From an uncultured bacterium (GTDB lineage: Bacteria; Fidelibacterota; Marinisomatia; Marinisomatales; AB-629-J13), in NCBI GenBank assembly GCA_964606925.1, contig CAZSIH010000002.1:1-58207 (forward strand): a DNA stretch of 58,207 bases, in the 5' to 3' direction. A program made the position numbers and the translations under genes. Below the pieces are notes generated by a model that was given only the letters and a program-made list of their open reading frames with translations, was not told the origin of the DNA and did no database searches. Every line of letters begins with the position of its first letter. The first letter of the stretch is position 1. Of this stretch, positions 5,806 to 35,858 are shown one piece after another.

Positions 5806-7887
5806 TTATTGAATTCCCAGACTGGTTAAAAATGCATCCATTGTAGGTTCCCTTCCTAAAAATTCCTGAACCAGTAATTTAGGATGAACTGTGCCTCCCG
5901 GTTCAAAAATTATTTTACGAAATCGTCTTCCCGTTTCCGGATCGAGAATCCCTTTTTCCTTGAAGACCGAATACATATCCTGGGCATAAACTTTAGACCA
6001 TAAATATCCATAATAAGCCGCTTCGTAACCCACCAGATGTCCAAATGACGACTGCATGTGGGTTCCATCAAGATAGGGATATAAAGTCAATTCATCCTGG
6101 AGTAATTCCGCCATGTCTGTTGTATTAAATTCACCGAATGGGTCGAACCCGTCATGGAGAGTAAAATCATACACACCGTAAAATATTTGTTGGAGGGTGT
6201 TTAATCCGGAATTCACATTTTTTGCGGCAATCATTTTATTTAACAATCTATCGGGTATTACTGCTCCTGTTTTATAATGACGGGCAAATAATTTTAATAC
6301 CTCTTTTTCCCAAACCCAATTCTCAAGAATCTGGGATGGCGCTTCCACAAAATCCTGTAAAACAGCAGTTCCGGAATAAAAATATAAGGGAGAAACGGTG
6401 AGAATCCCGTGAAGAAGATGCCCGAATTCATGAAAATATGTTTCCACATCATCATGGGGTAATAGGGACGGTTTTCCTTTCTGTGGAGGAGGAAAATTGC
6501 ATACCAGCGCCATAACAGGAATTTGATATTCATTGTCCAATAATTTACCCATGGAAACGCTGAAAGCCGCTGCGTGAGAATATTTATCTTCCCGGGGAAA
6601 CAAATCCAAATAGAAACGACCCAAAACCGTAGTGTCTTGTTCATCATAAACTTCATACATCGTGACATCTTCATGCCATACAGATGGATTTTTAATACGA
6701 TAAAACCCAATTCCAAATAACCGATTACAAATGTCAAATAAACCATTTATGACCTGGTTTAATTCAAAATATTCACTGATTTTTTTACTGTCCAACCGAT
6801 ATTGTTTCAGTTTCAAAAGATGTTCATATCGATCTGATTCCCATGATTCAATGGTGGTTTCATACTTCCCGGTTTTTTGAGATTTTATTTTCAACAATTT
6901 TTCATAATCATCCAATGCTTTAGGCATGACCAACTCATGAAGCGTTCTCTCAAATTCCCAAACTCTGTCTGCACTTTCCGACATGAGTATTTCTGTTCCA
7001 TAATCAGCAAAAGAAGGGTAATCCAATAATTCAGCGATTTGATTTCTGAGCAGGATGAGGGAATCCAATACCTGAAGATTTTTATCCGCTGCACGATTCC
7101 AGTACAAAAAGCGCAGGGCTTTTCTTGCACTGTCAGATTCTACATATTTCATAAATGGATTATAACTCGGGTAAGACAGGTCAATACCAAATTTACCATC
7201 ATCTTTTTTTCGATTTTCAGTGTAATCCTTCGAAAGTCCATTTAAATGGTGTTCCTTTAGAAAAAGCGTATCTTTGGATTCGGATATATTTTTTTCAAAT
7301 TTTAATCCTAAAGAAGTCAATTGATCCAAAATAATTTTAACACGAATTCTCACTCTTTTTCCCTGCCCAAAGCCATTGCGATTGAAATCCCGGAGCGTTT
7401 CTACCATAAATTTTTTCTCCAAACCCTTAAGCGCTTTTCCATTGGCTCTCTGTGAGAAAATTTCAATTGCATTATATAGTTTTTCATCAACGGATATTGA
7501 ATTGAGAAATTCCTCTATTTTCTGACTTGCTTCCAGTCCTGCCTCCCTTATGTCTTTATCCGGATGAGTAAATGCAAGCAAACCAACTGGACTCCATACA
7601 TTTTCTATAACATTTCCTAAATCGTCCAATGGAAGCAGTGTGTTTTTAAATGTTTTTTGAGATGGTCCAATTTTGTAAATATTTTTTAATAGTCTATTTG
7701 CCTTATAAATGACATGGTCAGTTGCTTCCAGAATATGATCTGCAGTAATTGAAGAAAAATCAATAGATTCTTCCCTGGATTTTAACAAAGGGTTTTTATT
7801 TTTTTCAGAGCAACCGGAGAAGATCAATACAATAATGGAAAAAATAAAGTACTTTACGAGTATCTGGTTTGAGAATTGTTTAAACAT
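5806..7887 (-). CDS. M3 family oligopeptidase (thimet oligopeptidase/Dcp-like), probable lipoprotein
   Basis: It carries the HEFGHLLH (HExxH) motif in an M3-like context. I moved the start to ATG 7885-7887 (MFKQFSNQILVKYFIFSIIVLIFSGC, a lipobox-like signal) because the track ORF start at 7968 runs into tRNA-Gly. Confidence 0.85.
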   Translation of the reverse strand: MFKQFSNQILVKYFIFSIIVLIFSGCSEKNKNPLLKSREESIDFSSITADHILEATDHVIYKANRLLKNIYKIGPSQKTFKNTLLPLDDLGNVIENVWSPVGLLAFTHPDKDIREAGLEASQKIEEFLNSISVDEKLYNAIEIFSQRANGKALKGLEKKFMVETLRDFNRNGFGQGKRVRIRVKIILDQLTSLGLKFEKNISESKDTLFLKEHHLNGLSKDYTENRKKDDGKFGIDLSYPSYNPFMKYVESDSARKALRFLYWNRAADKNLQVLDSLILLRNQIAELLDYPSFADYGTEILMSESADRVWEFERTLHELVMPKALDDYEKLLKIKSQKTGKYETTIESWESDRYEHLLKLKQYRLDSKKISEYFELNQVINGLFDICNRLFGIGFYRIKNPSVWHEDVTMYEVYDEQDTTVLGRFYLDLFPREDKYSHAAAFSVSMGKLLDNEYQIPVMALVCNFPPPQKGKPSLLPHDDVETYFHEFGHLLHGILTVSPLYFYSGTAVLQDFVEAPSQILENWVWEKEVLKLFARHYKTGAVIPDRLLNKMIAAKNVNSGLNTLQQIFYGVYDFTLHDGFDPFGEFNTTDMAELLQDELTLYPYLDGTHMQSSFGHLVGYEAAYYGYLWSKVYAQDMYSVFKEKGILDPETGRRFRKIIFEPGGTVHPKLLVQEFLGREPTMDAFLTSLGIQ

Positions 7888-7926
7888 CAAAATAAATAAA
7901 GAAAAAATGCGCCGGTCAGGGTATTG

Positions 7927-7999
<73 letters not shown>

Positions 8000-8037: not shown

Positions 8038-8484
8038 TCAATCTGATTTAGGAAAAATTTCAAACAAAGTTGAAGGTCTGTTCATAATAAACAATCCCAT
8101 TAAAAAGAGAATTGAATTTTCCAATAATTTTTGTGTACCTACCAATTCACCTTCTTTCAATCCGCATCCGCATTCAATGTTATATCCCCGTAAAATTGCG
8201 GAACTTATTGCAATGATAAAAACAACCAACAGACCCATGGACATCAATGCCGCCCCATCTACCATACAACCGATTACAAGCCCCAATCCGATCAAGAGTT
8301 CCAACCATGGAAGAATGATTGCCATTGTATTTTCCATTCCGAATGGAATGATATGATAATTATCTATACTTCGAGCAAAAGATTGAGGTTCAGTTATTTT
8401 ATCAATGCCTGCATAAAGAAATAAAACTCCTAAAATTAACCGAATTACTAAAATGAATAATGAATTTTGTATTATAGATTTCAT
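8038..8484 (-). CDS. MauE/DoxX family integral membrane protein with a CGCG motif
   Basis: It contains LILGVLFLYAGIDKITEPQSFARSIDNYHIIP, four hydrophobic segments and NIECGCGL. I moved the start to ATG 8482-8484, which overlaps the rhodanese TGA as ATGA. Confidence 0.7.
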   Translation of the reverse strand: MKSIIQNSLFILVIRLILGVLFLYAGIDKITEPQSFARSIDNYHIIPFGMENTMAIILPWLELLIGLGLVIGCMVDGAALMSMGLLVVFIIAISSAILRGYNIECGCGLKEGELVGTQKLLENSILFLMGLFIMNRPSTLFEIFPKSD

Positions 8485-8972
8485 TTTTCTATTTCGAATC
8501 CTTTTTCTTCCCATTCCGACCAACCGCCCATATAAATATAAATCAATGTAAATCCGCTTTCCTGCAAGCCGTAGGCAAGGTCTTCACTCTTGGCACATTC
8601 TCCGCCACTACAATAGGCAACAATTGGGGCTGTTTTTTCCTGTTTTTCTTCAATTGTAAAGGTGAGATCCATGAAATCTTCAGAAGACAATGCTCCGGGA
8701 ATATGTCCTTCTTCATATTCTTCTATTTCACGGGAATCCACAAAAAGAACTCCTGCATTAAAAAGTGATAACGCCTGCTCCGTTGAAATGGATTTTACAT
8801 CGCTAGTTTTCGATTGATTGGATAACAAATTTTCATCGGTTGCCTGTTCAATCTGCGGAGCCCGAAATGGAATTGATCTTGAATCGGTTCTGATCCCATT
8901 AGCTGAAATACCAACCAAAAGGGACAAGACGAGATAGATTCCCCCTTGCTTTAAAGGGGAATCAAAGCTCAT
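8481..8972 (-). CDS. Single-domain rhodanese-like sulfurtransferase with an N-terminal membrane anchor or signal
   Basis: It contains VLFVDSREIEEYEEGHIPGAL and the active-site loop VAYCSGGECAKS. The N-terminus GGIYLVLSLLVGISANG is hydrophobic. Its start overlaps the upstream gene's stop as ATGA. Confidence 0.8.
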   Translation of the reverse strand: MSFDSPLKQGGIYLVLSLLVGISANGIRTDSRSIPFRAPQIEQATDENLLSNQSKTSDVKSISTEQALSLFNAGVLFVDSREIEEYEEGHIPGALSSEDFMDLTFTIEEKQEKTAPIVAYCSGGECAKSEDLAYGLQESGFTLIYIYMGGWSEWEEKGFEIEK

Positions 8973-10126
8973 TTTTTATATAATGGTGAAAATGATTTGT
9001 CACGCAATTCTTTATCTTTACTTAAACATTGATCAACGAAAGCCAGCATTTCCGGATCATCCTTTATTTTTCGACTCATAGGAATCAAATCAAATTGAAT
9101 CTTGTTTGAAGCATGTGCAATATTGGTATTTGCTTCCTCTAATTGTTTTTCCAATGTTACAATTTGACGATAAACTGCTTGATTGTCAGCATACAAATCT
9201 TTTAGAGGTGTATCAGGATCTTTCTTTTGGTAATTTGCCAGTCTTCGTTCAGAATTTTCACTGAGTTTATTGTAATAACTAATATCCACAAAAGGTGAGT
9301 CAATATGAGAAATATCCAATTCCAGAAATGCCATATATTTTCCCTGTTTTCCGGGAATAAAAAGCGGTGGACGATCTTTTGGTTGAGGTTGTCCCTTCCG
9401 TGTTCTGGATATATCCCTGCTCATCACAATGTAATCCGCATCCCTGAACTCATCCTGTAAATCCTGTTTTTCTTTTCGATCAGCATTAACCAGCATAACA
9501 ACTAAATCAGCTTTTTTACGAATTTCTTTAATGTACTTTTTCCCCGATTCGTAAATATCTTCCATTTCAATAGTTTTGTTCCCATCCAGCAGAAGACTCG
9601 TGAGTCCTATGACACCAATCCTGAATGGTTCACGGTCAACAATCACATACGGTTCAGCAAATAATTTTCCCGTAGATTTAACACGAAGATTTGCGGAAAT
9701 AAATGGAATATCCGTTGCATCCATTATGCTCCGCAAAAAATCAACTCCTCCGGCAAGTTCATATCCTCCGATATTGATGGCAGCACATCCAATTTCCTCA
9801 TATCCCTTGATGATATTTCTCGCTTTATATTCATCGGCAGACCGAGTGTTATCCAATACCAGTGACGATGTGAACAACACCTCTCCCGCATCCAGAATGA
9901 TCGGATCTTTCCCTTTCTCCCTTATCTCATCCACATATGTTAATTTTCTTGACAGACCGCCAAGAGGATTTTTCTTTCAGCCACAGGGGTCGAGTTGAGC
10001 CCTGACATTAGCAGATAAGACAAATGACAAGGTTCCCGTAGGGTTTCGTTTTTCCTCACAGGAGAAAAGTAACCCTGAAACCACAAGAGTAAAGATCAAT
10101 CCGCTCTTTTTTTTCAATTGATTCAT
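8969..10126 (-). CDS. Putative selenocysteine-containing (Cys-Gly-Sec) lipoprotein on a degenerate 5'-nucleotidase/metallophosphoesterase-like fold; TGA 9977-9979 is read as Sec
   Basis: The frame of track ORF 8969..9934 stays open upstream to ATG 10124-10126 apart from one TGA at codon 50. The upstream part reads MNQLKKKSGLIFTLVVSGLLFSC (lipobox) ...LSANVRAQLDPCG-U-KKNPLGGLSRKL. A SECIS-like hairpin follows the TGA. The body (IILDAGEVLF, AINIGGYELAGG, IPFISANLRVKSTGKLF, RIGVIGLTS) aligns by eye with the UshA-type N-domain, but the metal ligands are replaced. Confidence 0.7.
9942..9979 (-). promoter_or_regulatory. Bacterial SECIS-like recoding hairpin immediately 3' of the in-frame UGA
   Basis: The RNA is UGA AAG AAA AAU CCU CUU GGC GGU CUG UCA AGA AAA UU. 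The upper stem UCUUGGC/GUCAAGA has 7 bp including one G-U, and the apical loop is GGUCU. The lower stem AAU/AUU lies across a CC/AA internal loop. With U of UGA as +1, the loop G and U fall at +23 and +24. Confidence 0.6.
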
Positions 10127-10151
10127 AATTTCCTTTTAATTATTTTTTCTA

Positions 10152-28949: not shown

Positions 28950-29957
28950 TTAATCAAACCATTTTTTTATCGTTTCAACATCCATCAAAAATGTAAAAAC
29001 ATGACCGGTAGAATGTACACCCCATTCCTGAATTGTGCTTAAAGTATAATTAATTGTGTATTTTTCTGAATTTACACTGAAGCCCATAGATAGTTTTCCT
29101 TTTCCAGATCTGCCAATTCTCAATGCAAATATTTCATCTGCATTCAATTCAATTCCGTACCGAATTATACCGCCATGACTGTAAAAATGAAAATCATCAT
29201 CAAGGGTTCGTTCTTTGAGTCGGAGTCCTCCATCAAAAAAGAGATTAATATCACACCACGAATATTGAATTACTGGTGTTATACTTCCCCCTATAAAAAT
29301 CTCCAGTGGCCAGGATTCCCGATATCCGGTGGTCCACTTCATTGGTAAAATCTCAATATTTTTTATTTCCAATCCCACGGAAAAGGATGAAGTCCATTGT
29401 CTGAATATCCCGCTATTGATTGTAAATCCATAACCATTTTCATCTAAAAGTGACGTGATGTATGATTGAAATCCCAACCCAATCATCCAATCATTCCATT
29501 CAACCCCACGTTGGAGCATCAAACCGAAACGTTGTTGGTTGAAATAGGAAATTTGATGGGTAATCAACCTTTCATTTCCGTTTATTACACCATCACCATT
29601 CCAATCTTCTAATGCAAAACGTGTGTCGGGAATGTCATAAACTCCTTCATGTATAAAAATGAATTTAAAAGGGTGTGAAAGACTTCGATAAGCGAATATT
29701 TCTCTGGATAATGTACCGGAAAATCGAGATTCACTTGAAAATGAAAAAGCACCCGGTTTGAATTGATTTATTCGTGCAGGGTTAGCTAATCCGGAATCAT
29801 GGGAAAACCGTGCACCTGTAAGTGCATTTCCTACAGCAAGAGCCGGCGCATCAATGACGGTGTGAAATACAGAATTTCCGGCATTTACAGGTGATATAAA
29901 GGGCAAAATATTGAGATGTGATAACAAAATGATTTTGTTGAAAATTTGTTTTCTCAT
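28950..29957 (-). CDS. Hypothetical outer-membrane beta-barrel-like protein
   Basis: It has a signal peptide, alternating aromatic/hydrophilic strands and an aromatic-rich C-terminus. No family was recognised. Confidence 0.4.
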   Translation of the reverse strand: MRKQIFNKIILLSHLNILPFISPVNAGNSVFHTVIDAPALAVGNALTGARFSHDSGLANPARINQFKPGAFSFSSESRFSGTLSREIFAYRSLSHPFKFIFIHEGVYDIPDTRFALEDWNGDGVINGNERLITHQISYFNQQRFGLMLQRGVEWNDWMIGLGFQSYITSLLDENGYGFTINSGIFRQWTSSFSVGLEIKNIEILPMKWTTGYRESWPLEIFIGGSITPVIQYSWCDINLFFDGGLRLKERTLDDDFHFYSHGGIIRYGIELNADEIFALRIGRSGKGKLSMGFSVNSEKYTINYTLSTIQEWGVHSTGHVFTFLMDVETIKKWFD

Positions 29958-32611
29958 CAGGACTTATATTTGGATTTTAAATCAAACAGCATTTGCAGGG
30001 CTTCTATGGGTGTCATGGAATTAACATCTACACTACTCAATTCTTCTTTTAATTTTTTCTCTTCAATATCGAATAAAATTTCTTGCGTGATTGTACCGGA
30101 TATGTCACTTTGAAACTGGTTTCCTTTCGATTGATTGATATGTTGTAAAAGGATTTCATTGGCACGCTGAATTATTGACTTTGGAAGTCCTGCCATTTTT
30201 GCCACATGAATTCCGTAACTCTTATCTCCTGCTCCAGAGATAATTTTTCGAAGGAAAATGATTTTATCTTTATACTCCTTAACCTCTGCATGATAATTGG
30301 ACAATCTATCCAAAGAATCTTCCAAAACGGTTAACTCATGATAATGTGTTGCAAACAGTGTTCGGGCAGCTACATGTGAATTCTCGTGTAAATATTCTGT
30401 AATCGCCCAAGCGAGGGACAAACCGTCAAATGTTGCAGTCCCTCTGCCCACCTCATCCAGAAGAATCAGACTGTTTTGGGTTGCATTATTCAGAATATTT
30501 GCTGCTTCGATCATCTCTACTAAAAAAGTACTTTCTCCTCCGGCTAAATTATCACTGGCTCCTACTCGGGTAAACAAATGATCAACGATTCCGATCTCGG
30601 CTTCTTCAGCAGGGACAAAACACCCGATTTGAGCCATAATCACAATGAGTCCAACCTGTCTTAAATATGTGGATTTTCCCGCCATATTCGGACCGGTAAT
30701 TAAATGAATTTGATTTTTTTCCGTGTCAATTGCAAGATCATTCGGAATAAACTTTTCGGTGACAGGTAAGAGTTTTTCCACCACGGGATGGCGTGATTTT
30801 TTCAATTTCAGAATGGGTTTTTCCGTAAAACTGGGTTTCACATATTTATTTTGAATTGCCAGAATTGCAAAGGTAGTTAAAACATCCAGTTTATTCAGGT
30901 TTTCAGCATTTTTCTGTATGGAAAGAGCTTCTAATATAATTTCATCGCACAACTCATAGAATAAACGGTTCTCTATCTCTGATAATTTTTCTTCCGCACT
31001 TAGAATTTTCTCTTCATATTCCTTTAACTCGGGAATAATGTATCGTTCTGCATTTACCAGAGTTTGTTTTCGAATATATTCAGGAGGGACTTTTTCCGAG
31101 TGAGTTTTCGTCACCTCAATATAATATCCAAATACCTTGTTATATCCTATTTTCAGTGATGAAATACCGGTTCTTTCCCGTTCAGAATTTTGTAATTGAG
31201 ATATCCATTCGGAACCATCTTTCGCCAGTAATCGCAGTTCATCCAATTCAGAATTAATTCCCTTAGCAATGATCCCGCCATGTTTTAAAGTTGCAGGTGC
31301 TTCCTCGTTGAGTTTGGATCTGATGGTATTTATCAACGGTTCAGTATCTCCAAACCACTCATTAATTTTTAGTGGATTTAACACCTCCGATTCTTTGAGT
31401 TTTCTCAATATTTCACTAATAAACTCGTATGTATTTTTTAGTCCCAATAAGTCCCTGGGTGAGGCTTTGGACCGATTGATTCTCCCCAAAATTCTTTCAA
31501 GATCAGATGTTATTGCCAAAAGTTCTCTCAGAAAATGAAGAATAGATTTTTCCTTTGTGAACGAATCAACAATATTGACCCGGTTATTCAATCGCTCCAT
31601 GTCAGTCAACGGATTGTGGAGCCATTTTTTCAACAATCTTCCACCTCCCGGTGAAGCTGTTTCATCCAGAATACTTGTTAATGTTCCGTGTGTACCTTGA
31701 GTGGACAGGGAGTTAAATATTTCCAGATTCCTCATTGTAAAACTGTCCAACCCCATGATTGAGTCTTTTAAAATGGGTTTTATGCTTGAAATATGATTTA
31801 ATGGTGAATTGAGGTTATGCTTCAATTGATACATCATCGCACCGGCAGCGCATATTCCTAAACGATACTCCTCGCAACCAAATCCCTTTAGAGACGGGGT
31901 TTCAAAATGATCTGACAAGAGCCTGTATCCGTGATCGTAATCAAAAACCCAATCATCAACTCTGGAAATATACGGTTTTAATTTTTTGTACCAATTTGAT
32001 GTGATATAAGCTTGGGACTCCGCTATTATCACTTCCCTTGGTGCAAATTGTCGAAGGGATTCACTTAAATTGTCTCCAGAAGATTCCCCCACATAAAACT
32101 CTCCTGTAGATTGATCCAGTACCGCATAGCCAACATTATCGTGTGAAAAAGTCAGGGAAACAATAAAATTATTTGACTTTTGTAGTGACTCTTCATCCGG
32201 TGCCAAAGTACCGGGAGATACAACTTCAATCACCTCACGTTTTACAATGCCCTTTGCTAATTTGGGATCTTCCACTTGTTCGCAGATGGCTACTTTATGT
32301 CCTGCATTAACAATTTTAGGAAGGTAATTATCTAAAGCACGATGCGGAAATCCAGCCAAAGGAACATCAGCAGCAGCACCGTTCGCCCTCTTCGTCAATA
32401 CGATACCCAAAATTTTTGATGTTATTTTTGCATCTTCATTGAAGGTTTCAAAAAAATCTCCCATTCTGAACAACACGATACTGTCAGGATATTTGGATTT
32501 CACCTCACCGTATTGCCGCATGAGGGGAGTACCGGTAAACATGTTTTGTGTATTATTTTCTTTTATGTCCTGCATTATCGGTGAATCATTCATGGCAAAG
32601 TTTCTGTTCAC
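29957..32611 (-). CDS. mutS: DNA mismatch repair protein MutS
   Basis: 884 aa. It contains TPLMRQY, the mismatch-binding FYE/FF region (GDFFETF) and Walker A GPNMAGKSTYLRQ. Confidence 0.95.
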   Translation of the reverse strand: MNRNFAMNDSPIMQDIKENNTQNMFTGTPLMRQYGEVKSKYPDSIVLFRMGDFFETFNEDAKITSKILGIVLTKRANGAAADVPLAGFPHRALDNYLPKIVNAGHKVAICEQVEDPKLAKGIVKREVIEVVSPGTLAPDEESLQKSNNFIVSLTFSHDNVGYAVLDQSTGEFYVGESSGDNLSESLRQFAPREVIIAESQAYITSNWYKKLKPYISRVDDWVFDYDHGYRLLSDHFETPSLKGFGCEEYRLGICAAGAMMYQLKHNLNSPLNHISSIKPILKDSIMGLDSFTMRNLEIFNSLSTQGTHGTLTSILDETASPGGGRLLKKWLHNPLTDMERLNNRVNIVDSFTKEKSILHFLRELLAITSDLERILGRINRSKASPRDLLGLKNTYEFISEILRKLKESEVLNPLKINEWFGDTEPLINTIRSKLNEEAPATLKHGGIIAKGINSELDELRLLAKDGSEWISQLQNSERERTGISSLKIGYNKVFGYYIEVTKTHSEKVPPEYIRKQTLVNAERYIIPELKEYEEKILSAEEKLSEIENRLFYELCDEIILEALSIQKNAENLNKLDVLTTFAILAIQNKYVKPSFTEKPILKLKKSRHPVVEKLLPVTEKFIPNDLAIDTEKNQIHLITGPNMAGKSTYLRQVGLIVIMAQIGCFVPAEEAEIGIVDHLFTRVGASDNLAGGESTFLVEMIEAANILNNATQNSLILLDEVGRGTATFDGLSLAWAITEYLHENSHVAARTLFATHYHELTVLEDSLDRLSNYHAEVKEYKDKIIFLRKIISGAGDKSYGIHVAKMAGLPKSIIQRANEILLQHINQSKGNQFQSDISGTITQEILFDIEEKKLKEELSSVDVNSMTPIEALQMLFDLKSKYKS

Positions 32612-34488
32612 ACCCGTTCGAATTTTGAGGGAAATTTCGATCCCTGAATGCGTTCATTTCCTCTTCGGAATGTAATACCGGATTTATCTAAATATTCCAA
32701 AAGAGGAATGGCAGTTTTCCGTGTAAGATTCGTCATTGATTTAAACTCCCCTACACTGAGAATTTCATTTGAATTATAGTGATCATCAAGTTTTTCAATC
32801 AACTGATCCAAATCCGGTTTACTCATCCACAGATGGTTGGAAATGTCCAGTGAATTCCCCTGTCGTTTTAATACATGCAGGAATTCAAGAATTTGTTCCG
32901 GTTCACACCGGATTTTTTCTCCAATTTCTTTAATAGAAACCGGGACAAATTTGTTTTGGAGTAAAAGAAGTTTGATTTGATCAAGAGTATTCTTATCCTG
33001 ATTTTTCAATTCCATTTTGTTAGTTTTTAAAGCCAAACCTCCTTTTTGAATTGTAATTTCCGTTCCGTCTAATTTTGCAATAATGTAATCAAACCATGGT
33101 CGACTGAATTCCAACTCATTCCGCACAGATTCCGAATTAATAAATGCACGATATGGATTTTTCTTATGAAAAGTTGTTAAAAAATTATTAATCGCTTTTT
33201 GTGCATGACCTACTCCTATTTCTGAAAATACCATATTTTTTTCGTTTATCAACTGATTAGATTCGATCAAGGAGAGCATGTACTCCTTGGATCTTGAGAA
33301 TTTTTCCGCCCAAAACGTTACTGATCTTGGTGCATTTTCTGAGTAAGTAATAAATTGAGGAAATCGTTCTGTTTGCTGTTCAGATAGTTGATGGCATTTA
33401 ACTTTTATTTTTTTCCAAGTCCCTTCCGGATCTCGATCCAATATTTTCCCTCCACCGATTGTATCCATGGGAGAATAAGCCCGGATAATAAAACGGTCAT
33501 CCAATGCTGTGGATATCGGTTTATTAAATTCCAAAACTGCGTTTATGGATTCCCCTGCAGAAATTGTTTTAGGTATATAAACAATTTTAGCCAATGATTC
33601 CGATGTTCCTAAATGAACTCGAATTCGCTGATGCGCTTTTATTTTCCATTTTGTAGTTTTAATTAATTTTATATGGACAATGGCTCGCTGAGCAGCTTGA
33701 ATGGACTTGGGCGTCACAAGTTCTGATCCACGCCAGACATGAACCAATTCAACTCCAGTCAAATTGACCGCTGCCCTATCTCCCTTAGATACAAAATCAA
33801 CCGGCTCACCATGACTCTGGAGTCCCCTGACTTTTCCACTTTTATTTGATGGTTGAACTCCAACTGATGACCCAATTTTCAGATTTCCTGAGAGTACCGT
33901 CCCGGTGATGATTAATCCATATCCGGTTTTTTGAAAGACTCGATCAACCTGTAATCTGAAAGTTTCATCATCTTGGTTCTTTTCCTTAACTCCCTCCAAA
34001 GAAGTCAATAAATCATGCAATGACTGAATTCCTTCATTGGTCTGAACTGAGGTCTTAATGATGGGTTTACCTTCTAAGATTGTTCCTTTTGTTTTTTCTC
34101 TGATTTCTTCCTTAACCAGATCCACCCATTGATCATCCTTAATCAAATCAGATTTGGTTAATACGATGACACCATCGGGAATTCTTAATAAATCAATAAT
34201 GTGTAAATGCTCCATCGTCTGGGGCATGATTCCGTCATCCAGAGCAATCACCAAAATGACAAAATCAATGGTAGATACACCCGCTACCATGTTCCGTATA
34301 AAGCGCTCATGACCGGGAACATCGATGATGGTAATACGGTCATTTAAAAATGCAAATCCCAAATCGATGGTCATTCCCCGTTTCTGCTCCTCAACCAGTC
34401 TATCGGTATCAACCCCGGTCAGAGCTTTCACAAGGGCTGTTTTGCCGTGATCAATATGCCCTGCAGTACCGATGACGATCTGATTCAT
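32608..34488 (-). CDS. selB: Selenocysteine-specific translation elongation factor SelB
   Basis: It has the GTPase G1-G4 motifs (GTAGHIDHGKTALV, DVPGHE, TKSD) followed by long winged-helix C-terminal domains. It overlaps the selA stop. Confidence 0.9.
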   Translation of the reverse strand: MNQIVIGTAGHIDHGKTALVKALTGVDTDRLVEEQKRGMTIDLGFAFLNDRITIIDVPGHERFIRNMVAGVSTIDFVILVIALDDGIMPQTMEHLHIIDLLRIPDGVIVLTKSDLIKDDQWVDLVKEEIREKTKGTILEGKPIIKTSVQTNEGIQSLHDLLTSLEGVKEKNQDDETFRLQVDRVFQKTGYGLIITGTVLSGNLKIGSSVGVQPSNKSGKVRGLQSHGEPVDFVSKGDRAAVNLTGVELVHVWRGSELVTPKSIQAAQRAIVHIKLIKTTKWKIKAHQRIRVHLGTSESLAKIVYIPKTISAGESINAVLEFNKPISTALDDRFIIRAYSPMDTIGGGKILDRDPEGTWKKIKVKCHQLSEQQTERFPQFITYSENAPRSVTFWAEKFSRSKEYMLSLIESNQLINEKNMVFSEIGVGHAQKAINNFLTTFHKKNPYRAFINSESVRNELEFSRPWFDYIIAKLDGTEITIQKGGLALKTNKMELKNQDKNTLDQIKLLLLQNKFVPVSIKEIGEKIRCEPEQILEFLHVLKRQGNSLDISNHLWMSKPDLDQLIEKLDDHYNSNEILSVGEFKSMTNLTRKTAIPLLEYLDKSGITFRRGNERIQGSKFPSKFERV

Positions 34489-35858
34489 GAAAGGGTATTC
34501 TTAATAAGCTGAATGATAATTTTGTCCTGTTTTGGAAGAACAGATTTAAAATCAATATAATATTTATTCCCGTGAATGAATCCGATCATAGGAGGATCAC
34601 CTATCCTGAATTTTATCGCTAACGCCGTAGATTTTATTTTTTTTGTTGAAAACACCAGAGCAGCACTGGGTAAGGATTTTACGGGAAGGGAACCACTGCC
34701 AGCCTCAACCTTTGTTTCAACAGCGGAAATACCAAAGGATCGAATAAGGTTTTTAGGGAGTGAATCCAACACACGATTTACCCGCAGAAATAATTGTTTT
34801 CTGGAAGTTGCCAATAAAGACAATGCTAAATTGTGTTTCACGTGTTTTTTCCTTCCAAATAATTTTAATGTTTCTTCTAACAGGGAAATCGTGAATTTAT
34901 CGCATCTTACCGTTCGGTAAATGGGATTTTGATTGCATTTTTGTATGAGTCTTCTGGATCCTAACATGATACCTGCTTGAGGTCCTCCCAATAATTTATC
35001 TCCTGAAAAAGTAATAAGTTGAGGTTTTATCTTTACAATTTCCTGTACCGGAAATTCCATGGGAAGCCCCAACTCTGAAATATTCTCAAGAGCCCCACTG
35101 CCTAAATCCGCCATGACAGGAATCCGTTTTTTCTTCCCAATTTCCACAAGAGTTTCAAGAGATAAATCTTTTGTAAATCCATGGATTTTATAATTGGATG
35201 TGTGTACCCAAAGCAAAAGTCCTGTTTTGGAATTTATAGCATTTTCCACATCTTTTCTGTGGGTTCTGTTGGTTGTTCCGACTTCCCTCAATATTCCCCT
35301 GCTTTTTTCTATGATGTCTGGGATTCGAAATGATCCCCCTATTTCCACTTCCTGCCCTCGGGAAACGATCACTTCCTTTTTTTCCGCCAATGTGTTGATA
35401 CCCAATAAAACTGCTGCAGCATTATTATTCACAATCATAGCAAATTCTGCACCGGTTACAGCTCTTAAATAATCCGTAATATGAGACTGACGATTTCCCC
35501 TTTTACCAGACTCCAAATTCAATTCTAAATTTGAATATCCTTCCAGTGATTTTGAGGCTTCCCTAATAATTTTCTGGTGGATGGGTGCCCGTCCCAATCC
35601 TGTATGAAGAACGATTCCCGTTCCATTAATAACAGGTCTTAAACTTCCTTTCGACTTTTCTATTACTTTCGAAACGATATCCTGAATAATTTTTTGTCTG
35701 TCAATTTGTAATTTCCCTTTTTTTGCAGAGGACCTGAATTCGGCTAATATTTCATTAATCCAAAGTGTTAATATCCTTTGATCAATATCTGTTAATCGCA
35801 TTACCTCAAGTAATACTTCAGAAATAGAGGGCAAGGTTTTTAATTGTATTTGATTCAT
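34485..35858 (-). CDS. selA: L-seryl-tRNA(Sec) selenium transferase SelA
   Basis: It contains VINGTGIVLHTGLGRAP, VNNNAAAVLL and FSGDKLLGGPQAG (PLP lysine). Confidence 0.9.
   Translation of the reverse strand: MNQIQLKTLPSISEVLLEVMRLTDIDQRILTLWINEILAEFRSSAKKGKLQIDRQKIIQDIVSKVIEKSKGSLRPVINGTGIVLHTGLGRAPIHQKIIREASKSLEGYSNLELNLESGKRGNRQSHITDYLRAVTGAEFAMIVNNNAAAVLLGINTLAEKKEVIVSRGQEVEIGGSFRIPDIIEKSRGILREVGTTNRTHRKDVENAINSKTGLLLWVHTSNYKIHGFTKDLSLETLVEIGKKKRIPVMADLGSGALENISELGLPMEFPVQEIVKIKPQLITFSGDKLLGGPQAGIMLGSRRLIQKCNQNPIYRTVRCDKFTISLLEETLKLFGRKKHVKHNLALSLLATSRKQLFLRVNRVLDSLPKNLIRSFGISAVETKVEAGSGSLPVKSLPSAALVFSTKKIKSTALAIKFRIGDPPMIGFIHGNKYYIDFKSVLPKQDKIIIQLIKNTLS

Follow-up and report, generated by a model that had tools for sequence, protein, structure and literature searches.

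A survey covering the Global Ocean Sampling (GOS) selenoproteome and published in 2008 listed 'COG0737, UshA-like', with the motif CxU, among the previously described selenoprotein families, and counted 76 selenocysteine (Sec) sequences in 20 samples together with 92 Cys homologues (PMC2398784). The family, described from metagenomes of the surface ocean, was presented there as one without the classical thiol-oxidoreductase motif, and it appears again in reviews of 2022 and 2026 (PMC9312934, PMC13188914). None of these three papers gives it a function, and it goes unmentioned in the papers on the Sargasso Sea (2005) and on Olavius (2007). In NCBIfam it is represented by the equivalog model NF041198 ('UshA_like_PCGU, UshA-like (seleno)protein'). 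Here, we describe a gene of this family on the minus strand of a 58-kb stretch of DNA from an uncultured bacterium of the Marinimicrobia/Fidelibacterota (contig CAZSIH010000002.1, positions 1 to 58,207); the whole stretch is referred to as the window, and all coordinates are given on it. In our reading, to which we assign a probability of roughly 0.92, positions 8969-10126 are one gene for an exported UshA-like Sec lipoprotein that carries a selenocysteine insertion sequence (SECIS) hairpin inside its coding sequence (CDS), and the product would act in extracytoplasmic redox chemistry and not as a phosphoesterase. The recoding as such is a rediscovery, as the family has been catalogued as a selenoprotein family since 2008. 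The window protein is a short-form member without the cytochrome domain, and it is missed by current models and pipelines.

The comparison with NF041198 shows how the two forms differ. The window protein matches this model with E = 9e-61, residues 11-377 aligning to profile positions 2-384 of 519, and positions 385-519 are left unmatched. Its 206 bits fall short of the curated 275-bit cut-off. Scores are 121-185 bits for the remaining short forms, and the Desulfobulbaceae members reach 445-463 bits over the whole profile. Short forms escape the curated model, as its cut-off is that of the cytochrome-fused architecture. The P-C-G-U motif, the UshA-like N-terminal domain and the SECIS hairpin are the same as in NF041198 and in the family of Zhang & Gladyshev (2008), whereas the Marinimicrobia form has no tetrahaem C-terminal domain, is predicted to be a lipoprotein and in many cases carries a His-rich tail at its C-terminus. 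In the Desulfobulbaceae, the C-terminal domain, to which the end of the NF041198 model corresponds, contains four CxxCH motifs and weakly resembles cytochrome c554-type and decahaem cytochromes; at least three such motifs were found only in seven Desulfobulbaceae loci. The Desulfobulbaceae versions (L067-L069, L071, L072, L075 and L076, for example L068 5893-7446), which include Candidatus Electrothrix, are 494-583 residues long, have ordinary signal peptides without a lipobox and appear to be monocistronic. NF049981 ('UshA-like (seleno)protein family 2') likewise describes an UshA-like selenoprotein, but the window protein matches it weakly, with 33 bits against a cut-off of 140, and its motif is CxxU, not CxU.

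Direct reading of the minus strand from 10126 to 8969 gives a single frame of 385 sense codons followed by a stop, with one internal TGA at codon 50 in the context SFVLSANVRAQLDPCG-TGA-KKNPLGGLSRKLTYVDEIREKG. The mechanical open reading frame (ORF) call, 8969..9934, uses a GTG start at 9934, begins 14 codons past this TGA and encodes 321 amino acids (aa). A preliminary description of this DNA had proposed that the call is a truncated piece of one Cys-Gly-Sec selenoprotein, whose frame extends upstream to the ATG at 10124-10126 with the TGA as its only interruption, and that the upstream part encodes a lipoprotein signal and the first strand of the fold behind an AGGA 4 nucleotides (nt) ahead of the ATG. 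All of these points hold: the N-terminus MNQLKKKSGLIFTLVVSGLLFSC reads as a lipoprotein-like signal, the AGGA is present with its 4-nt spacer, and in the orthologue model presented below the part ahead of the TGA supplies the first beta-strand. The TGA follows Cys-Gly, also as described (DPCG-TGA-KKNPLGGLSR), and the gene itself ends with a TGA in an ATGA overlap with a rhodanese gene (8969-8972). Signal peptides are found throughout the homologues, and in 68 of 71 short forms a Cys stands directly past the N-terminal hydrophobic core (visual count). A His-rich C-terminal tail (HGHNHNHNHKW, HKHNHDHDHKHNHDHDHK) occurs in 31 of the 71 short forms, including L001, P0004 and P0027-P0040; the window protein ends with SFSPLYKK (8969-8990) and has no such tail.

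A first line of evidence for recoding is the conservation of the TGA among relatives. A protein search returned 235 relatives, mostly from Candidatus Marinimicrobia, and 78 genomic loci from species-representative genomes, two contigs and the window were assembled into a set of 81 DNA sequences. The 80 loci other than the window were retrieved by the peptide pattern [KR][KS]N[PQ]xGGLSR, which lies just past the TGA and overlaps the motif encoded by the SECIS; Cys48, Gly49 and the TGA lie outside this pattern. Cys-Gly-TGA was present at the Sec column in all 81 sequences, which come from two phyla and span the Marinimicrobia/Fidelibacterota and the Desulfobulbaceae, the latter with the cultured Desulfopila aestuarii DSM 18488 and Desulfosediminicola flagellatus as well as Candidatus Electrothrix. 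The TGA is thereby kept down to about 21-25% protein identity, and Cys48 is invariant in 78/78 aligned Sec-type genes. Protein conservation is strong upstream of the TGA, too, and the peptide with the highest conservation in the family extends across it on both sides.

An exhaustive profile search was used to lift the bias of the retrieval pattern. Among the cluster representatives covering the column, it yielded CGW in 33 cases (W corresponding to TGA), CGC in 26, and CEC and CSC in 2 each. Relatives without Sec have Cys at this column, never Trp, and the Cys-type relatives are continuous across it. TGA and Cys at one and the same column is the classical Sec/Cys pairing. One of the Cys-type homologues, P0147 (L081 4001-5122, L082 1129-2250; EPCGCRTPLGGLAKK), has a SECIS-like hairpin, UCUUGGC-GGUCUU-GCCAAGA, directly after the Cys codon, which looks like the relic of a recent Sec-to-Cys switch; in L083, a Cys-type gene at greater distance, this hairpin is absent.

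In the databases, the relatives are mostly called in a truncated form of about 300-340 residues. Approximately 15 calls are full-length, every one with W at the TGA column, and one full-length database protein does not match the standard-code translation of its own DNA. Since all 81 DNA sequences have TGA at this position, the W of the database entries represents TGA translated under genetic code 4. Full-length forms with Trp in place of Sec (DPCGWKKNP) include P0004, P0027-P0040 and the 33 cluster representatives, where the DNA (locus L079, 574-576) has TGA, and the NCBI Marinimicrobia records are truncated 'hypothetical proteins' of about 303-344 residues. A further call, P0094 (386 aa), has a foreign N-terminus with a PF01315 match joined to the UshA-like body just past the Sec position, which makes a chimeric or mis-assembled gene call the probable explanation.

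As a second line of evidence, the RNA directly 3' of the TGA was analysed. The sequence UCUUGGC-GGUCU-GUCAAGA forms a hairpin with a folding energy of -8.9 kcal/mol in a 61-nt context and of -7.8 kcal/mol for the 23-nt hairpin alone. Bacterial SECIS elements are expected to have a loop of 3-9 nt with G at loop position 1 or 2, a stem of 4-16 base pairs (bp), a distance of 16-37 nt from the UGA and a minimum free energy of -7.5 kcal/mol or lower (PMC13188914); the hairpin lies within all of these bounds, with the 5-nt loop GGUCU, G in loop positions 1-2, a stem of 6-7 bp, a spacing of 18 nt and the energies given above.

For the comparative analysis, 64 nt around the TGA were aligned from 78 distinct sequences and the pairs were counted. 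In the core stem, four of six pairs are invariant. The pair between the third positions of the Leu and Ser codons (27-39) is G-C in 50 sequences, A-U in 17, U-A in 5, G-U in 5 and unpaired in 1, which amounts to 22 two-sided compensatory changes. Overall pairing was 81.5%, compared to 28-45% when the partner columns were slid, and the observed covariation score was reached by none of 500 shuffles. G-C, G-U and A-U all occur inside one clade (L004, L003/L037 and L028), U-A is found in at least three clades (window/L001/L079, L054 and L077), and A-U is likewise present in several different clades; the scatter of these variants across and within clades does not correspond to one inherited event. 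The codons under the hairpin are frozen: in the 78 genes, Gly56 is GGC in 78/78, Gly57 is GGT in 75/78 and Leu58 is CTG in 78/78, with entropies of 0-0.27 bits. As a control, eleven conserved Gly, Pro, Ala and Ser columns outside the hairpin were examined, and in ten of them, among them Gly49 one codon before the TGA, the commonest codon accounts for only 34-53% (entropy 1.6-2.0 bits); the exception is Ser236 with 64% and 1.21 bits. On these comparative grounds, frozen synonymous sites and compensatory pairs together show that the RNA itself is under selection.

The preliminary description had drawn a 7-bp upper stem, UCUUGGC/GUCAAGA, closed by the loop GGUCU and standing on a lower AAU/AUU stem. 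In the window the upper stem folds as drawn. Across the family, six of its pairs form the conserved core and the seventh is kept in 32/78 only, and the lower stem had to be given up as a conserved element, its A-U pairs holding in only 28/78 and 57/78. It had also drawn the parallel to the fdhF SECIS of Escherichia coli, in which GGUCUG likewise starts 18 nt after the UGA; the fdhF sequence it gave was present in 5419/5426 E. coli genomes, and the spacing is the same in both elements. They also share a small apical loop and a G+C-rich closing stem inside the CDS. Unlike the fdhF element, the UshA-like hairpin is predicted to have a 5-nt loop and a regular stem of 6-7 bp that contains an invariant G-U pair and lacks the bulged U. 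The loop U is essential in E. coli fdhF. In the Desulfobulbaceae loci L067, L068 and L072, the loops are GGACU or GGGCU, not GGUCU, and thus the U that is essential in fdhF is not universally kept in the UshA-like family.

The fold was examined on the full-length orthologue P0004, which is 64-67% identical to the window protein. Its AlphaFold model has a pLDDT of 89 and a pTM of 0.85, with low confidence only around the Sec loop; the first beta-strand is encoded upstream of the TGA, and the part beyond the N-terminal domain comprises only about 100 residues, mainly helical. In Foldseek, the model matched E. coli UshA (2USH/1HP1) and human CD73 with E = 5e-19 and a probability of 1.0 at ~17% identity, and hmmsearch against 5'-nucleotidases gave E = 1e-16 to 3e-17. 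The read-through protein had no Pfam match at E <= 0.01, the C-terminal nucleotide-binding domain of 5'-nucleotidases found no Pfam match either, and the 5'-nucleotidase profiles align to the N-terminal domain only. A 5'-nucleotidase-like fold of the window protein is thus confirmed at the level of the orthologue model.

The positions of the metal ligands were then assigned by a residue-level alignment to UshA with column counts over the 78 Sec-type genes. Asp41 of UshA is replaced by Asn or Ser, and His217 by Asn. At the position of His43, His occurs in 46 genes and Arg in 27, among them the window gene, where NVRA stands in place of the DxHG of motif I. The GNHE motif has become G-(H/G/K)-(Y/F)-E/D, with Asn116 changed to H/G/K and His117 to Y/F, and reads GGYE in the window. 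About 5 residues downstream of metallophosphatase motif I, an insertion of four residues forms the C-G-U loop. A direct replacement of DxHG by DPCGU was considered and rejected, as it is NVRA that aligns with motif I, with C-G-U inserted downstream. The protein thus resembles UshA and CD73 (1USH, 2USH, 4H2I) in its N-terminal metallophosphatase fold and its predicted extracytoplasmic location, and differs from them in the replaced metal ligands and catalytic His, the missing nucleotide-binding C-terminal domain and the C-G-U insertion. Measured against the motifs DxH, GD, GNHE, H and GH, which supply the dinuclear metal ligands and the catalytic Asp-His dyad, the column counts show that most of the ligands and the catalytic His have been lost, and with the metal site dismantled and the C-terminal domain absent, activity as a nucleotidase is very unlikely. 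A weak profile match was also obtained to SoxB (TIGR04486; 31-46 bits, far under the cut-off of 550). SoxB is a thiosulfohydrolase of the 5'-nucleotidase superfamily that acts in the periplasm on compounds of sulfur; it has kept the dimanganese site and is not known to have a Cys-x-Sec loop. As judged from the alignments, UGA50 is shown to be a conserved, SECIS-supported Sec codon in a predicted exported protein of UshA fold without the nucleotidase active site.

This dismantled site is also where the main functional rival arises. It accepts the same recoding and takes Cys48 and Sec50 not as a selenenylsulfide pair but as metal ligands in the remnant 5'-nucleotidase site, on the model of formate dehydrogenase, where Sec is a ligand of Mo/W, or of [NiFeSe] hydrogenase, where it binds Ni. 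The C-G-U loop indeed adjoins the former dimetal site, and former ligands are partly kept in the family, with the Asp of motif II present in 64/78 and the His of motif I in 46/78, and with N146 invariant. His-rich tails such as HGHNHNHNH, carried by 31/71 short forms, are typical of metal-handling proteins, and the tetrahaem fusion of the Desulfobulbaceae would fit a catalytic redox metal site. In the window protein itself, however, Arg stands in for the His of motif I and Glu for the Asp of motif II, and the His tail is absent, so that any metal site would rest mainly on Cys and Sec; moreover, C-x-U and C-x-C are classical redox motifs, and no cofactor-insertion genes were seen nearby in the window. 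Overall, we regard metal ligation as possible but doubtful.

A redox role finds its context in the neighbouring genes (Table 1). About 60 Marinimicrobia loci keep one gene order, from SUI1 through the Sec gene, rhodanese and MauE/DoxX to tRNA-Gly, at only 35-45% protein identity. The rhodanese gene is co-linear in 64 loci, with the motif Y-C-x4-C-G in 64/64, and the MauE/DoxX gene in 60 loci, with C-G-C in 60/60; the rhodanese gene mostly follows the Sec gene at a distance of -4 to +31 nt. A partial analogy comes from Mycobacterium tuberculosis, where a DoxX-SseA(rhodanese)-SodA membrane oxidoreductase complex was reportedly described in 2015. It reportedly unites two proteins, a DoxX-family membrane protein and one of rhodanese type, in the chemistry of thiols and oxidative stress and is not known to contain an UshA-like or Sec component, so that the analogy concerns the neighbours only. 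Further downstream in the window, the mechanical ORF of an M3 peptidase (5806-7968, TTG at 7968) overlaps tRNA-Gly(GCC) at 7926-7999, which places the true start of the peptidase further downstream; the call of the L084 orthologue has 693 residues compared to 720.

Table 1. Features of the Sec gene, its neighbours and the Sec machinery in the window
Feature	Position	Strand	Basis
CDS of the predicted UshA-like selenoprotein, 385 residues, Sec at residue 50	8969..10126	-	single frame; homologues conserved on both sides of the TGA; NF041198 match
UGA predicted to be read as selenocysteine, residue 50, motif P-C-G-U	9977..9979	-	TGA in 81/81 related sequences; Cys in non-Sec relatives
Codon of Cys48, C-x-U partner of Sec50	9983..9985	-	invariant in 78/78 aligned Sec-type genes; outside the search pattern
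Predicted SECIS hairpin; stem of 7 bp in the window, conserved core of 6 bp (9964-9959 with 9953-9948), loop GGUCU 9958-9954	9947..9965	-	folding, covariation, frozen codons, bacterial SECIS criteria
Predicted signal peptide ending at the lipobox-like Cys23 (LLFSC)	10058..10126	-	direct reading; Cys after the hydrophobic core in 68/71 short forms
AGGA, putative ribosome-binding site, 4 nt before the ATG	10131..10134	-	direct reading
Membrane-anchored rhodanese-domain protein, invariant Y-C-x4-C-G; start overlaps the stop of the Sec gene (ATGA)	8481..8972	-	PF00581, 1.4e-16
Four-helix MauE/DoxX membrane protein, invariant C-G-C; ATG 8482-8484 overlaps the stop of the rhodanese gene	8038..8484	-	PF07291, 5e-29; PF07681, 6e-11
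selB, selenocysteine-specific elongation factor	32608..34488	-	TIGR00475, 353.5 bits (cut-off 242.25)
selA, selenocysteine synthase	34485..35858	-	TIGR00474, 508.7 bits (cut-off 267.9)

We propose the following mechanism. The UGA at codon 50 would be decoded as selenocysteine by SelB with Sec-tRNA(Sec), recruited by the hairpin inside the CDS, whose GGUCU loop lies 18 nt after the UGA and which is written across the codons of the conserved peptide P-L-G-G-L-S-R. Outside the cytoplasm, the Cys48-Gly-Sec50 loop would cycle between the selenol/thiol and the selenenylsulfide form. The neighbouring genes and the tetrahaem fusion suggest an extracytoplasmic redox role, and we infer with moderate confidence that this loop is the redox centre, exchanging with rhodanese and MauE/DoxX or with the fused haems. 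In the Marinimicrobia, the partners in an exchange of electrons or sulfur would probably be the C-x4-C rhodanese, presumably co-transcribed, and the MauE/DoxX membrane protein with its C-G-C motif. In the Desulfobulbaceae, where the same domain is fused to a tetrahaem cytochrome c domain, the exchange would be with the fused haems. A more far-reaching proposal, which we put forward tentatively and consider unlikely as it stands, is that the three co-linear genes form an undescribed extracytoplasmic selenol/thiol relay in which the Sec lipoprotein is the catalytic end of a membrane-wired oxidoreductase for sulfur or selenium compounds.

The remaining alternatives concern the decoding of the UGA. 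Both selA and selB are encoded in the window, as first described, with scores above the NCBIfam cut-offs; together with mutS they form an adjacent set with overlapping ends (34485-35858, 32608-34488 and 29957-32611, minus strand). It is very improbable that the UGA is read through without Sec machinery, by near-cognate tRNA-Trp or tRNA-Cys, with the hairpin slowing the ribosome or being a by-product of the peptide. Gene callers using code 4 do produce a plausible full-length Trp protein, and selenium incorporation is a prediction from sequence; nevertheless, the non-Sec relatives have Cys and never Trp at the column, the frozen synonymous sites and compensatory pairs point to selection on the RNA, and loop and spacing copy the SelB-binding fdhF element in a window that carries selA and selB. 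A true stop, leaving either a pseudogene or two genes (one for a lipopeptide of 49 residues, the other for a protein of 321 residues from the GTG at 9934), would agree with the mechanical ORF call and with most public annotations. This explanation is already effectively refuted by the retention of the TGA in 81/81 sequences down to about 21-25% identity, the straddling conserved peptide, the continuous Cys-type relatives and the first beta-strand encoded upstream of the TGA.

The use of UGA as a sense codon genome-wide (code 4 or 25), for which the W given by some pipelines at the Sec position of homologues might speak, is refuted by the stop codons of the window, where 38 stop-free stretches of at least 200 codons end in TGA 16 times, the Sec gene included, in TAA 21 times and in TAG once, and where the ATGA junctions at 8969-8972 and 8481-8484 had led the preliminary description to the same view; the same TGA is moreover found in the cultured Desulfopila aestuarii DSM 18488 and Desulfosediminicola flagellatus, which use the standard genetic code. 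No other convincing candidate for an in-frame TGA was seen in the window.

Several observations weigh against our interpretation of the locus as a Sec lipoprotein with a redox function. The literature accessible to us holds no experimental datum on the UshA-like CxU family, and selC (tRNA-Sec) and selD were found neither in the 58-kb window nor in 35 flanks. The invariance of residues 51-60 in the 80 retrieved loci is partly a selection effect, as the loci were picked by a peptide overlapping the SECIS motif. The 61-nt fold energy is no better than that of shuffles (z = -0.12), and the case for the element is therefore comparative and not thermodynamic. Rfam returned only tRNAs for the window at the gathering threshold and only noise for 9880-10040 at E <= 10, and no curated bacterial SECIS model in Rfam matched the hairpin in either scan. 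In the structural model, pLDDT falls below 50 at residues 51-53 of the Sec loop. The gene order is also less uniform than the redox proposal would wish: one Marinimicrobia clade (L006, L010, L018 and L022) has no rhodanese or MauE/DoxX match downstream, the flanks of L006 and L022 covering only ~1.2 kb; the neighbours in the Desulfobulbaceae are unrelated (a DHH/DHHA2 phosphoesterase and a GAF-cyclase regulator); and neither of the two Cys-type homologues examined has rhodanese/DoxX neighbours. As SUI1 and tRNA-Gly are equally syntenic, the gene order may partly mirror a phylum-wide arrangement. The clade of L006, L010, L018 and L022 is marked by the peptide SGSMHGQLDPCGUKKNPMGGLSRRY, and in L018 tRNA-Gly directly follows the Sec gene.

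The UshA-like family is among the more abundant marine selenoproteins, and annotation of the Marinimicrobia gene goes wrong systematically, by truncation to a 'hypothetical protein' of about 300-340 residues or by Trp at the Sec position, so that the reading given here is of direct value for annotation. The dismantled metal site, the exported location, the neighbours with paired Cys and the alternative tetrahaem fusion provide testable functional leads. If the proposed relay were true, a selenoprotein family that ocean surveys have recorded in abundance since 2008, and that has never been characterised, would gain a function, and in the Desulfobulbaceae, cable bacteria among them, the same catalytic domain would be wired to a tetrahaem cytochrome by fusion.

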